Source: Gemmatimonadaceae bacterium (lineage in GTDB: Bacteria; Gemmatimonadota; Gemmatimonadetes; Gemmatimonadales; Gemmatimonadaceae). From it: 30,960 nucleotides of DNA. The position numbers and the translations under genes are program-made. The stretch lies in the NCBI GenBank assembly GCA_043762555.1, contig JAYUMO010000088.1, positions 1-30,960 of the forward strand, read 5' to 3'. Shown in pieces: positions 20,924 through 29,438 of the stretch. The notes below the pieces were generated by a model. The model did no database searches. It saw nothing but the letters and a program-made list of their open reading frames with translations, and was not told where the DNA came from. Each line of letters starts with the position of its first letter. The stretch's first letter is position 1.

Positions 20924-21999
20924 GGCATGCTCCCCGCCGGAATGTGCCGGATCACGGTGAAACTCTCGGCATTCACCACCGTCACATCGTGCGACGGGCC
21001 ATTGGCCGTGTAGATCCGCTTCCCATCCGCGGTCACGCCGACCCCCCAAGGCCGCTTTCCGACCGCCACCGACGCGATCACCGTGTCCCCTTTGGTGTCG
21101 ATCGCGATGAGCGTACCGCCGCGCCCCGTGGTGATGTATACGCGCGCGCCATCGGGCGACATCGCCGATCCCATCGGCCTCACGTTCAAATTCTCGCCCG
21201 CGAGCGCGATCGTCTTCCTCACCTTGTGGCGCTTCGCGTCCACCACCGAGACGCTCCCGCCCACCTCGTTCGTGACGTACGCCTTCGCGCCGTCGGGGGT
21301 GAAGGCCACCGAGCGCGGCCGTTTGCCCACCGGGATCGTCGCGATCACGCGACGCGTGTCGGTGGCGATCACGGCGACGGTGCCCGTGCCCTCGCTCGTC
21401 ACGTACACCACCGCGCCGTCGGGGCGCAGCGTCACGCCCTCCGGCTCGCTCCCCACCGGGATCGTGGCCACCGCGGTGCCGCTCACGACGTCGAGCACGG
21501 TGACCGCGCTCGCATCCTCATTCGACACGTAGACCGTCTTGCCATCGGCGCTCACGTCGAAACTCTCGGGATCGACGCCGCCGGGGAGCGTGCGCTTGAG
21601 CGCGCGCCGCGCGAGATCCACCAACGCGATCCCGTCGCGCGAGCGATCGGCCGGCGGCAGCGACCGCTCGTCCACGCCGGGCCCCGCCTTGGGCGAGCCG
21701 CTCACCGCGACGATGAGCGTGCTCCCGTCGGGACTCACCCGCACGCCGCGCGGCCGTCGGCCGGGCAGCACGGAGGCCACCACCGACTCCGCGCGCGTGT
21801 CGATCACCGCTACCGAGTTGCCGTCCTCGCTCGAGACGTACGCGTACGGTCCGCCGCCGAGCAGCGAGGGGCCGGAATGCGCGGCGCCGGTGGCGCTGTC
21901 CTCGGCGGAGTTTTCGCCGCCGCTGCCATTGCGGCCGCACGCCGCGCCCAATGTGGAGGCGAACGCAAGGGCGAGCGGGAACGCACGCGAGCGCGTCAT
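20899..21999 (-). CDS. YVTN-type beta-propeller repeat lipoprotein
   Basis: Lipobox-like LGAA|C. Repeats of the form AYV(S/T)NE...SVxVID...IPVGxxPxG(V)xx(S/T)PDG. ATGA overlap with the DUF885 gene. Confidence 0.85.
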   Translation of the reverse strand: MTRSRAFPLALAFASTLGAACGRNGSGGENSAEDSATGAAHSGPSLLGGGPYAYVSSEDGNSVAVIDTRAESVVASVLPGRRPRGVRVSPDGSTLIVAVSGSPKAGPGVDERSLPPADRSRDGIALVDLARRALKRTLPGGVDPESFDVSADGKTVYVSNEDASAVTVLDVVSGTAVATIPVGSEPEGVTLRPDGAVVYVTSEGTGTVAVIATDTRRVIATIPVGKRPRSVAFTPDGAKAYVTNEVGGSVSVVDAKRHKVRKTIALAGENLNVRPMGSAMSPDGARVYITTGRGGTLIAIDTKGDTVIASVAVGKRPWGVGVTADGKRIYTANGPSHDVTVVNAESFTVIRHIPAGSMPWGVAISK

Positions 22000-23590
22000 G
22001 CGGCCGAGAGTCCCATCCCCCAGCGCGCGAGCGCCGTGGGATACGAGCCATAGCGGAGCAGCTCCTCGTGGAAGCCGCGCAGCGAGAACGCGGCGCCGCG
22101 CACGCGTCGTGCATCGTCACGGAGGCGGAGGATCTCGCGCCGCCCCACCGCGTAGCAGAGTTGGTACGTCGGGTACGCGCAGTAGCGCTTCGCCTCGGCA
22201 TCCGCGAGCCCCGGCTCGAAGCCGGCCTCCTCCTGCAGCATCCGCGACGCTTCTTGCCAGGTCATGCCGCGCGTATGCAGCGAGATGTCGAGGAGGATGC
22301 GCAGCGCGCGCCAGAGCAGGTGGTGCGCCTGGAAGAAGCGCTGCGCCGGCTCGAGGAACCCTTCGTCGGCCATCAGCGTTTCGCAATACAGCGCCCAGCC
22401 TTCGCGCGTCGCGGGCGTGGCGAGCACGCGGCGCGCGCGGCGCTTCAATCCGTTGGCGGTGACGATGTGCAGGTGGTGGCCGGGAAAGCCCTCGTGCACC
22501 GCGGTGTTCGGCAGCTCGGCGCGGCAGTCGGAGCGCCACGGCTCGCCCTTGGGCGGCAGCGTGACGAAGAAGCTGCCGCGCTGATCGTCGTCGAAGGCGC
22601 CGGGGCCTTGATACGCGGCGTACGGCACGAGCGGCCGGAGGAACTCCGGCGTTTCGATCACCGCGAGCTCGCCGGCGGGGACCGGCACCAGCCCGCGCGC
22701 GACGGTGAACTCGCGCGCGCGGCGCATCGTGGTCTCGTATTCCGCGAGCGCTTGATCTCGCGAAGGCCGATCCTTCCGTAGCTCGGTCACCAGATCGCGC
22801 CACGAGCCGCCGGGCCGCAGCTCGCACGCGCGAAGCTCCAGCTCCGCGAGCGCTTCCGCGCGGAGGCGCTCGCCGTAGCGGTAGAGCTGGTCGGCGTCCT
22901 CCGCGAGCAGGTGCCACGTTCGCAGTTTCCGGTCGAACAACTCGCGGCCGAGCGCGAAGGTGGAGCCCGCCTTCTCCTGCATGATCACGAGCGCATCGCC
23001 GAAGGCGGTGAGGGCTTCCACCGCCTTCTCCCGCGCCTCGGAGACCGCGGCGGGATCGAGGCCGCCGCCGGCGAGCGTGGCGGCGTCCAGCGCCTGGCGC
23101 ACGAGCGTCAGCCCCCCAGGCACCATCGCGCGCGCCATCTCGACGAAGCCGGCGTCCGGGCGAGTGACCACCTTCACCGCGCGCTCCAGGAACCCCGGCA
23201 GCGCCTGCACGCGAGAGAGCAGGGCTCGCGCCCGGTGCGCCTTGCCGCGCGGCTCGCGCGCGAGCAACAGGTAGAGCCCGGTGAGCGCGTGCGACAGGTG
23301 CGATCCCGGATTCCGCTCGTAGGGGCGCTCGCTCTCGAGCACGAGCAGGTCGTGCCGCACCGCCTGCAACGCGGCCGTGCGGTCGATCTCATCTTCGAGT
23401 CCGTCGGGCTCCGCTTCCTCCAGCGCGTGTTCGTAGCTGCGCAGCGCGGCCACGTGCAGGCCCACCGATTCGGCGTCCCAGCGCGCGAACTCGCCGTCGC
23501 GCTCGTGCCGTCCGTGAAAGGTGGCCTCCACCGGGTTCATCGCCCAACGGAGGTCCAGATAGCCGTCCAGCATCTGCTCGAAGGTGCTCG

Positions 23591-23594
<4 letters not shown>
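21996..23594 (-). CDS. DUF885 family protein
   Basis: GTGA overlap at 23591-23594. AVHEGFPGHHLH, EGWALYCE, LRILLDISLH, YQLCYAVGRREILRLR, FHEELLRYGS. Confidence 0.88.
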
Positions 23595-24841
<1,247 letters not shown>

Positions 24842-26371: not shown

Positions 26372-29300
26372 TCACCAGAGATCGCCCACGGTGAAGGTCC
26401 AGCGCAGCTTCACGGGCTCCGCGCTCGCCGCCGAGCCGGGCGCGAGCGACGGCTCGTTCATCCAGACGGGCAGGTCGATGCGCAGCACATAGGCGCGGTC
26501 GTAGAGCGCGCCGTGCAGGATGGCGCTCGCCCCCGCGTCGCCGAACCACTGCGCGGGATTCGGCAGCGCGCCGGCGAGCGACGCATAGGCGCCGTCGGCG
26601 AAGAGCGCCGCCTGCACGCGCGGCAGCAGCGACGCTGCGCGCGGCGCGTTCACCGTCCAGGTCAGCTGCGTGTTCACCGCGCCGACGCTCTGCACGCGAG
26701 TGTAGAGGGAATAGCCGCGCAGCCCCGCGCCGCCGAGCGGCACGTAGTGCACGTCGGGGAGGACGAGGATCGCATCGCTGCCGCGGAGGAAGTTGTTCTC
26801 GAAGGTCTGCGTGGCATCGAGCGACGAGAGGCCGATCGACCGCTGCGCCGGTGCGGTGCTGGACACCCCGCCAAAACCACGGAGCATGAGCGCCAGCCGG
26901 CCCTGCGCCGCGAGCGGGAGCGTGGTCCCTCCTTCGAGCTCCGCGCGTCCGAAATTCCCCTCGAGCGCGACGCCGGTGCGCGGGAAGATCAGCCCACCGT
27001 CCAAGAAGAAGCGCGCGAACGCTTGAGCGGGGCCACGCGAGCGCCATTTCCATTCGATGCTCACATCCCCCACGGTCGCGTTGTTCCAGCGCGCCGTGTC
27101 CTGCCAGCTGCGGTCGTAGGGCGCCGTCACGTTCAGCGCGAAGGTGATCGTGTCGCGCGGTCCGTTCGCGAAGCGGAATGGACTCTCATCCCACGTCCGG
27201 CGAAGCTCGAAACGGAAGGTGCCGTCCACCATCCACGCGCCGGTGCGGAGCCCGATCACGGGGCGCGCCGCGCCGGCGAGGCGCGGGTTCTCCACGGCGA
27301 GCCAGCCCTGCAGCTGCGGCAGCGTGCTCGACGTCGGCCCACGCACCGCCACTACGAGACCGCCGTCCCAGAGGTCTACGAGGTTTTGGTAGTTGGAGCG
27401 CACGCGCGCGCCGACGGTGAGGCCGCCGGGGCCGGTGTACCAGAGCCGCGGCTCGATCGCCGCCACATTGCGGTAGCGATCCCACTGATCGAGGAAGGGC
27501 CACCCGAACACGATGCGCGTGGTCTCTGGCTCGTTGTCATTTCGTGCATCCCAATCGGGAGTCAGGTGCCGTGGATCGAGCTCATAGGGGCCGGGACGGG
27601 AGGGGAGCACGATCGTATCGCGCATCACTGCCAGCCCGGCGGTCGTGCCCGCCAACTCGACGTCCGCGTAGCCCATCCGGATCGGCTCAGGGTGTCGGTA
27701 CTCGCCCAGCTTTCGCACGGTCGCGATGGTCCTCGAGCCGGCAGCGATCGAGTCGATGGTGACGGTCGCCGCGTAGTCCACCAGCCCGGTGTGATGCACC
27801 CACTCATCGAAGAACCACGCGAGATCGTTCCCCGACACGCGTTCCGCGCTCGCGCGCATCGCGCGCTCGTCCACGTGCCTCATCCGCCACCGCGCATAGT
27901 AGTCCTTTAGAAACGCGCGGAAGAGCGAGTCGCCGAGCACGTCGCGCAGCGCGCCGTACATCATCTCGGCGCGATCGTACACCATCGTGTTGTAGACCGT
28001 GAACTCGTTGAAGTCCTGCCCCGCGGTGCCGATCGGCTCGGCGCGGCCGGTGAGGTCGAGCGCGAAGAGATCGATCTCGTCCTGCTGCCAGGGAGGCGGC
28101 CGGAGCGCGCGCCCGCGATAGCCGGCGGGGGGCGGCGGATCGCTCGGACCGAGCCCGCGCGCGCGCTCGGGCGCGGTCGCGTTCAGCGCCCAGTGCGCCT
28201 GATACGACGTGAGTCCCTCGTCCATCCACGCGCTCCGCCACTCGTTGTTCGCGAGGATGCCGTAGCTGTAAATGTGCCCCACCTCGTGCAGCACGAGATC
28301 GTAGTGCATGAATGTGCTGCCGTAGAGCACCATCATCGGGAATTCCGTGGAGCCCGCGTCGAGGCGCAGCGCCGCCATCACCTGCGGATACGGATAGCGC
28401 CCGTAGATCGACTCCAGCCACGCCAGCGCCCGCTTCTGCTTCTCCACGATCGCGCCCTTGGCCCACGCGCTCTCGCCGCGCTGTTCGTACAGCACGTGCA
28501 CCGCCACCGTGTCGCGGTACAGTCCGCCCTCGTAGCGGTAGTCGGGGCTCGCCGTCCACGCGAAATGATGGATGTCCCGCGCGTAGAAGCGCACCGCGCG
28601 CTCGCCGGCCGCGAGCGGCACCGCCGGCGCCGGTGGGAGCGCGCCGTACGCATCGCGCGGGATCGTCACCACGCCCCAGCGCTTGACGCGCTCCCACCCC
28701 GGGTCCCCTCCCACCGGCACGCCCGTGGCGCCGAGCACTTGATCGGTCGCGACGATGAGCGTGACGTCGAAGGTGCCGAACTCACCGTACAGCTCGCCGG
28801 CGGCCACGAGCGGATTCGGCTCCCAGCCGAGCCGGTCGTACACCGCTACCTTCGGGTACCACTGCGCGAAGTCGTAGTGACGGCCGCGCCTACCCTGCCG
28901 GCGATAGACGGTGGCCGATGGACGCGCGTCCCAGGCGAAGTGCACGCTCACCGAGTCTCCCGGCGCGAGCGGCCTCGGCAGTAGAAAGCGCGCGACGGTC
29001 GAATCGGGCGCGTACGGATAGCTCGGCGCCACCGGCGTGCCGTCGAAGGCCGGCAGGGCGGTGAAGCGCTCGAAGGCGGTGTTCGAATCCGCGAGATGCT
29101 GGAAGCGCACCCGCCCTTCCCGCTCGTCGGCCGCGCTCCAGCGCGAGCCGGGGCGGTACGCGTTCAGGTACTGGTGCACGTACATCTCGCGCAGCGTGTC
29201 CGGCGAGTGATTCACATAGCGGAGATCGCCGGCGGCGTGCGCCGTCTGCGCCTTCTCGTCCAGCCGGGCGACGATCCGGTAGTCCGCCCGCTGCTGCCAA

Positions 29301-29380
29301 TAGCCGATCGTGTCCCCCGACGGCGGCGTCGTGGGAGCGACGGCCTGTTGCAGCGCGATGACGACCGGGAGGAGCAGCAT
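26372..29380 (-). CDS. M1 family zinc aminopeptidase fused to a C-terminal Omp85-like beta-barrel
   Basis: YWQQRADY N-terminus, GSTEFP (GxMEN-like), HEVGH-x18-E (28274-28288 onward), and a downstream Tyr in VYDRA. The C-terminal ~380 aa carry GGAGLRGY, FADG and terminal WTFTVGDLW. Start is ATG 29380 or GTG 29386. Confidence 0.88.
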   Translation of the reverse strand: MLLLPVVIALQQAVAPTTPPSGDTIGYWQQRADYRIVARLDEKAQTAHAAGDLRYVNHSPDTLREMYVHQYLNAYRPGSRWSAADEREGRVRFQHLADSNTAFERFTALPAFDGTPVAPSYPYAPDSTVARFLLPRPLAPGDSVSVHFAWDARPSATVYRRQGRRGRHYDFAQWYPKVAVYDRLGWEPNPLVAAGELYGEFGTFDVTLIVATDQVLGATGVPVGGDPGWERVKRWGVVTIPRDAYGALPPAPAVPLAAGERAVRFYARDIHHFAWTASPDYRYEGGLYRDTVAVHVLYEQRGESAWAKGAIVEKQKRALAWLESIYGRYPYPQVMAALRLDAGSTEFPMMVLYGSTFMHYDLVLHEVGHIYSYGILANNEWRSAWMDEGLTSYQAHWALNATAPERARGLGPSDPPPPAGYRGRALRPPPWQQDEIDLFALDLTGRAEPIGTAGQDFNEFTVYNTMVYDRAEMMYGALRDVLGDSLFRAFLKDYYARWRMRHVDERAMRASAERVSGNDLAWFFDEWVHHTGLVDYAATVTIDSIAAGSRTIATVRKLGEYRHPEPIRMGYADVELAGTTAGLAVMRDTIVLPSRPGPYELDPRHLTPDWDARNDNEPETTRIVFGWPFLDQWDRYRNVAAIEPRLWYTGPGGLTVGARVRSNYQNLVDLWDGGLVVAVRGPTSSTLPQLQGWLAVENPRLAGAARPVIGLRTGAWMVDGTFRFELRRTWDESPFRFANGPRDTITFALNVTAPYDRSWQDTARWNNATVGDVSIEWKWRSRGPAQAFARFFLDGGLIFPRTGVALEGNFGRAELEGGTTLPLAAQGRLALMLRGFGGVSSTAPAQRSIGLSSLDATQTFENNFLRGSDAILVLPDVHYVPLGGAGLRGYSLYTRVQSVGAVNTQLTWTVNAPRAASLLPRVQAALFADGAYASLAGALPNPAQWFGDAGASAILHGALYDRAYVLRIDLPVWMNEPSLAPGSAASAEPVKLRWTFTVGDLW

Positions 29381-29395
29381 GCCCACAATGTGAAG

Positions 29396-29438
29396 AAAGG
29401 AGAATAAAGCGGCGCCCGCTCGGTGGAGCGGGCGCCGC
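29396..29438 (-). terminator. Rho-independent terminator downstream of atpH
   Basis: Perfect 13-bp stem gcggcgcccgctc/gagcgggcgccgc (29409-29438) with a 4-nt loop, followed on the minus strand by TTTATTCTCCTTT. Confidence 0.8.

Follow-up and report, generated by a model that had tools for sequence, protein, structure and literature searches.

A predicted periplasmic M1 aminopeptidase joined directly to a divergent, POTRA-less Omp85-type barrel in Gemmatimonadota

We analyzed a 30,960-nucleotide stretch of DNA from a Gemmatimonadaceae bacterium (contig JAYUMO010000088.1 of assembly GCA_043762555.1; hereafter the window) and focused on a gene on its reverse strand (positions 26372..29380) whose product joins an M1 aminopeptidase directly to a C-terminal beta-barrel of the Omp85 type. 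Our favored reading, to which we assign a probability of about 0.6, is that this M1-barrel protein is a Sec-exported outer membrane protein in which an Omp85-type barrel devoid of POTRA domains fixes a periplasmic M1 aminopeptidase under the outer membrane. Following export by Sec, the barrel would be inserted by the machinery for beta-barrel assembly (BAM) by means of its aromatic C-terminal signal. The barrel would take the place of the usual helical domain IV of M1 enzymes, and the chain would enter strand 1 from the periplasm through a short conserved linker, with the enzyme rigidly fixed at the outer membrane's periplasmic face. The lack of domain IV would leave the M1 cleft open, and the enzyme would act on peptides with free N-termini, presumably removing N-terminal residues either from envelope polypeptides or from oligopeptides after their passage across the outer membrane. 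An earlier note on the same DNA had proposed that the gene encodes a type V-like, self-displayed peptidase of new architecture; as described below, the domains that it recognized hold up, and surface display is not favored by our analysis.

The M1 module and the Omp85-type barrel

As read from the sequence, the N-terminal 610 residues of the protein are a catalytically competent M1 zinc aminopeptidase consisting of domains I to III. PF01433 is the sole Pfam match of the whole protein, with a score of 52.7 bits against a cut-off of 27.7 over residues 361-529. The catalytic domain II (residues ~301-535; positions 27782..28486, on the reverse strand like all features of the gene) was delimited by this match, by alignment with the cold-active aminopeptidase ColAP (3cia) and by its invariant residues. 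Its zinc site, HExxH-x18-E, is formed by H367, E368, H371 and E390, with E390 exactly 18 residues past H371, and these residues are invariant in an alignment of 45 sequences, as are both Y465 and Y470, the two candidates for the catalytic tyrosine downstream of the zinc site. In the alignment with ColAP, HEVGH (residues 367-371, positions 28274-28288) corresponds to HELAH, WMDEG with the zinc ligand E390 (positions 28214-28228) corresponds to WLNEG, and GSTEFP (residues 345-350, positions 28337-28354) corresponds to GGMENP. The glutamate of the GxMEN exopeptidase motif binds the N-terminus of the substrate, and according to the same alignment the GSTEFP variant keeps this residue as E348. Both HExxH-x18-E and Gx[TM]E[FN]P are found in 127 of 127 full-length homologues, which together with the PF01433 score confirms the intact M1 core described in the earlier note.

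We modeled the whole protein with AlphaFold2 using 45 homologues, obtaining a mean predicted local distance difference test score (pLDDT) of 86.5 and a predicted template modeling (TM) score of 0.85. When this model was compared with the PDB by Foldseek, it matched ERAP1, IRAP and PepN with E ~1e-20 over ~650 columns. The E value for ERAP1 and PepN was 7.5e-21, and the TM-score (TMt) to the short Deinococcus M1 enzyme 6iff was 0.71, indicating a thermolysin-like fold with an N-terminal beta domain. The latter is domain I (residues ~28-300, positions 28487..29305), which was assigned from the predicted secondary structure and the Foldseek matches. Domain III (residues ~536-612, positions 27551..27781), likewise recognized by Foldseek, is modeled as an all-beta sandwich of strands only, bears LDPRH at residue 603, and accounts for the Ig-like segment that had been noticed after the catalytic core. 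The model has no counterpart of the helical domain IV found in classical M1 enzymes.

The region beyond domain III is modeled as a barrel (residues 640-1004, positions 26375..27469). In both the whole-protein model and a second AlphaFold2 model of residues 620-1004 alone (pLDDT 84.6), 16 strands are predicted between residues 640 and 1000. Two long loops stand out among otherwise short loops and turns: one of 53 residues that joins strands 11 and 12, which is loop 6 (L6; residues 844-896, positions 26699..26857), and one of 20 residues before the very short last strand; of the extracellular loops, all but L6 and L8 are modeled as short. Foldseek comparison of the barrel model with the PDB returned Omp85 proteins as its best 29 matches (BamA, TamA, BamA proteins of Bacteroidota and Fusobacterium, and Sam50), with E values of 3e-5 to 5e-4 and a probability of 1.0. 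The first match outside Omp85, at rank 30, is BcsC.

The decisive test was a profile-profile comparison by HHalign, in which a 112-sequence alignment of the family's barrel was the query. The template consisted of 29 canonical Omp85 barrels from Gemmatimonadota genomes, each verified by a hidden Markov model, together with the E. coli BamA barrel. The two families align over 177 columns with a probability of 92.1% and P=6.1e-7, whereas a reversed-template control gave P=0.55; a positive control, in which WD40-like barrels were compared with the canonical barrels, gave 98.3%. Six elements fall in register in this alignment: GG..RGY of L6, N.E of strand 12, F.D.G of strand 13, G.G of strand 14, R.D of strand 15, and the C-terminal strand. 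Thus, given the profile alignment and the motifs in register, we conclude at the level of sequence profiles that the C-terminal 365 residues are a divergent member of the Omp85 superfamily. The 16-strand Omp85-type barrel that the earlier note had proposed is therefore supported by two structural models and by the HHalign result, and the best 29 Foldseek matches agree with it, though at low TM-scores.

The individual motifs are readily located. L6 carries LGGAGLRGY (residues 884-892, positions 26711-26737; LRGY, residues 889-892, occupies 26711-26722), which is aligned on GG..svRGY of canonical Omp85 proteins. Strand 13 (residues 923-937) carries LFADGA (residues 928-933, positions 26588..26605; FADG at 26591-26602), which corresponds to the FxDxG lid-lock motif of Omp85 proteins. 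The last strand, strand 16, is also the putative beta-signal, RWTFTVGDLW (residues 995-1004, positions 26375..26404), and shares the pattern [FW]xFx[IV]GxxW with QFQFNIGKTW of E. coli BamA, whose K-12 record also has GGSSTVRGF and FFWDMG at the corresponding places. Within the alignment of 45 sequences G885 and F929 do not vary and R890, G891 and D931 are kept in at least 90% of the sequences, placing the hallmark residues among the few invariant columns of the barrel. Among the full-length homologues, FxDx[GA] is present in 121/127 and a C-terminal aromatic residue in 119/127. The motifs on which the earlier note relied are thus all present where it had placed them, and their conservation across homologues indicates that they are not there by chance.

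No POTRA domain was found between the two modules: the models PF07244, PF08478 and PF08479 have no match even at E<=10, and the AlphaFold2 model contains no beta-alpha-alpha-beta-beta unit, in agreement with what the earlier note had suspected. Residues 536-639 are all-beta in the model apart from one helix of 4 residues. Domain III is joined to strand 1 by ~27 residues, a short conserved segment (residues 613-639, positions 27470..27550) with a strand TRIVF (residues 623-627) followed by WPFLDQ.DR.R, where WPFLDQ begins at residue 629. This segment has a mean pLDDT of ~80-85 per 10-residue block, and D611, W612, D613, R615, N616, W629, P630, L632, Q634 and R637 are conserved around the joint. 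Because these residues are conserved and confidently modeled, the joint looks like a fixed connection, as far as the model can tell, and not like a tether spanning the barrel lumen.

Orientation of the enzyme and alternative readings

L6 is extracellular in all solved Omp85 proteins. If it is taken to be extracellular here, the parity of loops and turns in the AlphaFold2 model puts the residues that precede strand 1 in the periplasm. Because the chain would enter strand 1 from there through a short, conserved linker, the M1 enzyme is likely periplasmic, and the model points to its being held at the periplasmic face of the outer membrane, not displayed on the surface, as the most likely arrangement. 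The same orientation has been established for PlpD. Hanson et al. 2024 found from protease accessibility, from truncations and from disulfide mapping that the PlpD patatin domain is exclusively periplasmic, and in their view a folded domain cannot be forced through a completed Omp85 barrel; FplA likewise went undetected on the surface of cells (PMC11116518). Strand parity, the short, conserved and confidently modeled linker, and the periplasmic location of the PlpD enzyme all speak against the type V-like self-display that the earlier note had put forward.

It is unlikely, on balance, that the barrel translocates its own M1 domain in the manner of a type V-like exporter and yields a surface-bound or released ecto-aminopeptidase. 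The placement of an enzyme N-terminal to an Omp85 barrel does resemble PlpD as first described, Heinz & Lithgow raised the same possibility for their 'Metallo' group (PMC4104836), the short extracellular loops other than L6 and L8 suggest that the modeled barrel might be less capped than that of BamA, and a surface aminopeptidase would be ecologically sensible for a sediment heterotroph. However, all proposed Omp85-type translocation systems have POTRA domains and this protein has none, its cargo would be a 600-residue globular zinc enzyme and not a beta-helix, and a linker of only ~27 residues, conserved and modeled as structured, would need to run back along the lumen, in addition to which the precedents of PlpD and FplA point to the periplasm (PMC11116518). 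A second alternative, which we regard as distinctly unlikely, keeps the M1 enzyme in the periplasm but directs it at envelope proteins: the barrel would dock at or near BAM or the module for translocation and assembly (TAM), and the enzyme would process or clear the N-termini of stalled or misassembled outer membrane proteins, in a role like that of BepA at BAM. Heinz & Lithgow suggested that enzyme-Omp85 fusions serve quality control in the periplasm (PMC4104836), longer substrates should be able to enter a cleft that has lost domain IV, and the gene is single-copy and vertically inherited with conserved synteny. Yet the retained glutamate of the GxMEN type predicts an exopeptidase that needs a free N-terminus and would degrade proteins poorly, the search of Gemmatimonadota genomes found no copy of the gene in ~60% of them, so that it is not a core envelope function, and no BAM-linked neighbors were found. 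It is also quite improbable, though, if true, it would give the Omp85 scaffold a new function, that the protein is a channel and trimmer in one, with the barrel lumen opening onto the catalytic cleft; oligopeptides would cross the outer membrane and be trimmed as they emerge, or polypeptides threaded through the barrel would lose their N-termini. In this arrangement the barrel would be more than an anchor: with its short L4 and L7 loops, it would stand in for the helical domain IV that closes the substrate cavity of classical M1 enzymes.

Several results weigh against our favored reading of a periplasmic M1 enzyme on an Omp85-type barrel, and some of them favor a barrel of unrelated origin. 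PF01103, the Omp85 family, has no match in the M1-barrel protein at E<=10, nor in any of 105 further sequences (44 homologues and 61 database representatives) at E<=1 or E<=0.01; of the two Pfam families named in the earlier note, PF01433 was recovered and PF01103 was not. Scans of the barrel segment alone with Pfam and NCBIfam (HMMER) gave no Omp85 match, and a PF01103 scan of the whole genome found five other Omp85 genes and missed this one. A search of PDB sequences with the barrel profile had no match. While the best 29 structural matches are all Omp85 proteins, their TM-scores are only 0.33-0.44 and their root-mean-square deviations are 9-14 A. The low TM-scores, the missing PF01103 match and the appearance of BcsC at rank 30 are what would be expected if the C-terminal domain were an unrelated 16-strand barrel, porin- or BcsC-like, with coincidental Omp85 motifs. 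We regard this as very improbable given the HHalign result (P=6e-7, compared with 0.55 when the template was reversed, and six motifs in register), the motif residues among the few invariant barrel columns, and the 29 Omp85 proteins that precede BcsC. The remaining adverse points concern export, expression and context. The N-terminal hydrophobic segment MLLLPVVIALQQAV (positions 29339..29380), the presumed Sec signal, is modeled as a helix over residues 5-15 with low pLDDT, and residues 1-14, MLLLPVVIALQQ, are without any basic residue, which is atypical. LQQ within this segment is kept in nearly all homologues, and the basic-residue-free N-terminus may represent an unusual export signal or cleavage site; the signals of the WD40-like paralogue and of the stand-alone barrels described below are ordinary, with Arg or Lys. 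A search for RNA evidence of the M1-barrel sequence found sediment-metagenome DNA runs only, and the neighboring genes are uninformative on its function.

Gene, neighborhood and distribution

The open reading frame extends over positions 26372..29386 and comprises 1004 codons when counted from an in-frame GTG at 29386; translation from the ATG at 29380 to the stop codon at 26372-26374 gives a protein of 1002 amino acids that is identical to a public database entry (P0002). No further in-frame start is present 5' of the start of the reading frame, so that the product would start with MLLLPVVIALQQ. The G+C content of the window is 65-71%. Between atpH and the M1-barrel gene, also on the reverse strand, lies an intrinsic terminator-like hairpin (positions 29409..29438) with a 13 bp stem containing 12 GC pairs and the tail TTTATTCT. 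Because this strong terminator-like hairpin separates it from atpH, the M1-barrel gene is probably transcribed alone, as a separate unit, and we rejected an operon with the ATP synthase genes on the same ground. The strong terminator directly after atpH also isolates the atpF-atpH pair, and no atpA lies downstream within the window. Three genes downstream of the M1-barrel gene is a gene for a DUF885 protein (positions 21996-23741, reverse strand; E 1e-82), and DUF885 is again found downstream in three of the eight genomes compared below.

The order atpF-atpH-M1-barrel gene-nucleoside triphosphate (NTP) transferase recurs in 6 of 8 genomes compared, which span two families and have 36-51% protein identity; in some of them additional DNA separates atpH from the M1-barrel gene. 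Within ~10 kb of the M1-barrel gene, the NTP transferase is present in 7 of the 8 genomes and the atp pair in 6, and in three of the eight HMGL and/or DUF885 lie downstream. This recurring synteny indicates old vertical inheritance.

A search among 1.84 billion proteins with the barrel profile retrieved 534 cluster representatives. The M1 domain was found in 30 of the 61 barrel representatives scanned, namely the ones of sufficient length to contain it; most of the others are fragments. Likewise, most of the ~400-residue matches that appear to stand alone are N-terminally truncated fragments. Few stand-alone barrels have a signal peptide (P0195, P0207 and perhaps P0175). P0195 and P0207, ~395 residues long, have a normal signal peptide that leads directly into strand 1 (WYNDPGG), making them 'noNterm' relatives of the fusion's barrel. 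Among 301 sampled Gemmatimonadota genomes, one of which (G157) is unpublished and is the sole basis of none of our claims, the barrel is present in 113 (38%), representing 43 of 128 genera, usually as a single match per genome in a frame of ~1000 amino acids. A scan of species genomes with a strict pattern matched only metagenome-assembled genomes of uncultured Gemmatimonadaceae or Gemmatimonadales, and a search with the full-length alignment retrieved close relatives only, with no bridging sequences. In a protein-language-model atlas, near neighbors with the same length and PF01433 occur in Krumholzibacteriota, Fidelibacterota, Planctomycetota, Bacteroidota and Myxococcota, and some of the neighboring clusters carry PF01103 in 27-98% of their members. 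We treat these look-alikes as leads given by embedding similarity and not as established homologues. The survey of taxonomic spread suggested in the earlier note thus places the architecture in over a third of the sampled Gemmatimonadota genomes and look-alikes in several further phyla.

The same genome encodes a canonical BamA with several POTRA domains and an Omp85 barrel, a TamA-like protein, a WD40-like Omp85 protein and two other odd Omp85-like proteins. Because a canonical BamA and a TamA-like protein are present, the M1-barrel protein would be an accessory barrel. Two proteins of the genome, P0063 (G000 contig C3, L003:598-2655, reverse strand) and P0062 (contig C296, L007:2295-4271, forward strand), are POTRA-less and Omp85-like; one of them has a weak bactofilin-like match (E 0.006) before a PF01103 barrel and the other only a sub-threshold PF01103 match (19.6 bits). 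P0061/P0214 (G000 contig C138, L006:189-3014, reverse strand) is the WD40-like Omp85 protein; its ~1049 amino acids comprise an N-terminal gluzincin module with HExxH, PD40/tricorn-like propellers and a PF01103 barrel, and its relatives are found in 2-3 copies per genome. Together, P0061/P0214 and the M1-barrel protein recall tricorn protease and its M1 interacting factors, but their genes are unlinked. Linkage of the M1-barrel gene with the WD40-like paralogue was examined in five genomes, two of them single-contig, and was rejected, with the two genes lying megabases apart.

Comparison with known systems

Omp85 proteins are familiar as machinery for the insertion or translocation of other proteins. 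Recent work on PlpD shows that the scaffold can instead keep an enzyme beneath the outer membrane (PMC11116518). If our reading is true, a large, vertically inherited family with a complete M1 aminopeptidase in place of POTRA domains would add a second case of this principle, with a different chemistry, and it would mark an unrecognized peptide-processing site at the inner face of the outer membrane of abundant soil and sediment bacteria. The M1-barrel protein shares with PlpD and FplA ('type Vd') an enzyme domain N-terminal to a 16-strand Omp85 barrel. It differs in that PlpD is a phospholipase that forms dimers and has a POTRA domain between enzyme and barrel, whereas here a peptidase is joined directly to the barrel; the passenger-POTRA-barrel order of subtype Vd is not found in the M1-barrel protein, which has no POTRA domain.

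The closest published framework is that of Heinz & Lithgow 2014, who described ten Omp85/TpsB subfamilies, among them the POTRA-less 'Metallo', 'WD40-like' and 'noNterm' groups (PMC4104836). In their Table S3, the best 'aminopeptidase' matches of WD40-like Omp85 proteins are the M1-type structures 1z5h, 4kxd and 3qnf, although PF01433 itself does not appear in their architecture tables (PMC4104836). A 2024 paper sums up those fusions as 'WD40 and peptidase domains'. We found no description of a direct M1-Omp85 fusion, or of an experiment on one, in the literature searched. The new architecture claimed in the earlier note is nevertheless not supported, given the M1-type matches in Table S3 and the atlas clusters that carry both PF01433 and PF01103.

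The WD40-like subfamily, which has a member in the same genome and phylum, resembles the M1-barrel protein in that an Omp85 barrel without POTRA domains is preceded by a zinc peptidase module. However, the M1-barrel protein (P0001) has no PD40/WD40 propeller and no PD40 or DPPIV_N match, whereas P0061 has them, and its peptidase is a full PF01433 M1 enzyme, with which the WD40-like N-terminus aligns only around HExxH...EG (P=0.006). The barrels of the two are only faintly alike (P=0.006-0.016), and neither BLASTP nor a first HHalign comparison of the M1-barrel protein with the genome's own WD40-like Omp85 barrel was significant. The 'Metallo' (PF00149 metallophosphoesterase) and 'noNterm' proteins are likewise POTRA-less barrels that retain the lid-lock motifs, as in the noNterm paralogues of Leptospira (PMC11358297), and the stand-alone relatives P0195 and P0207 parallel the evolution from noNterm to fusion that has been proposed. 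These groups differ from the M1-barrel protein in their N-terminal module and in that its barrel family escapes PF01103. An entire branch of Omp85 barrels goes unseen by PF01103, so that superfamily censuses remain incomplete.

With the classical M1 enzymes (E. coli PepN, ERAP1 and ColAP) and the two-domain Deinococcus radiodurans enzyme 6iff, the M1-barrel protein shares the fold of domains I-III and the zinc and exopeptidase motifs; it differs from the classical enzymes in having GSTEFP for GxMEN and a membrane barrel where they have the helical domain IV. With BamA and TamA it shares 16 strands, GG..(V/L)RG(F/Y) in L6, FxDxG in strand 13 and the C-terminus [FW]xFx[IV]GxxW, and it differs from them in having no POTRA domains, shorter L4 and L7 loops and a barrel below Pfam detection. 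The M1-barrel architecture is thus real, conserved and unstudied. It falls within the known class of enzyme-Omp85 fusions, and what is new is a Gemmatimonadota branch whose barrel lies below Pfam detection, together with profile-level evidence from sequence that this barrel is an Omp85 barrel.

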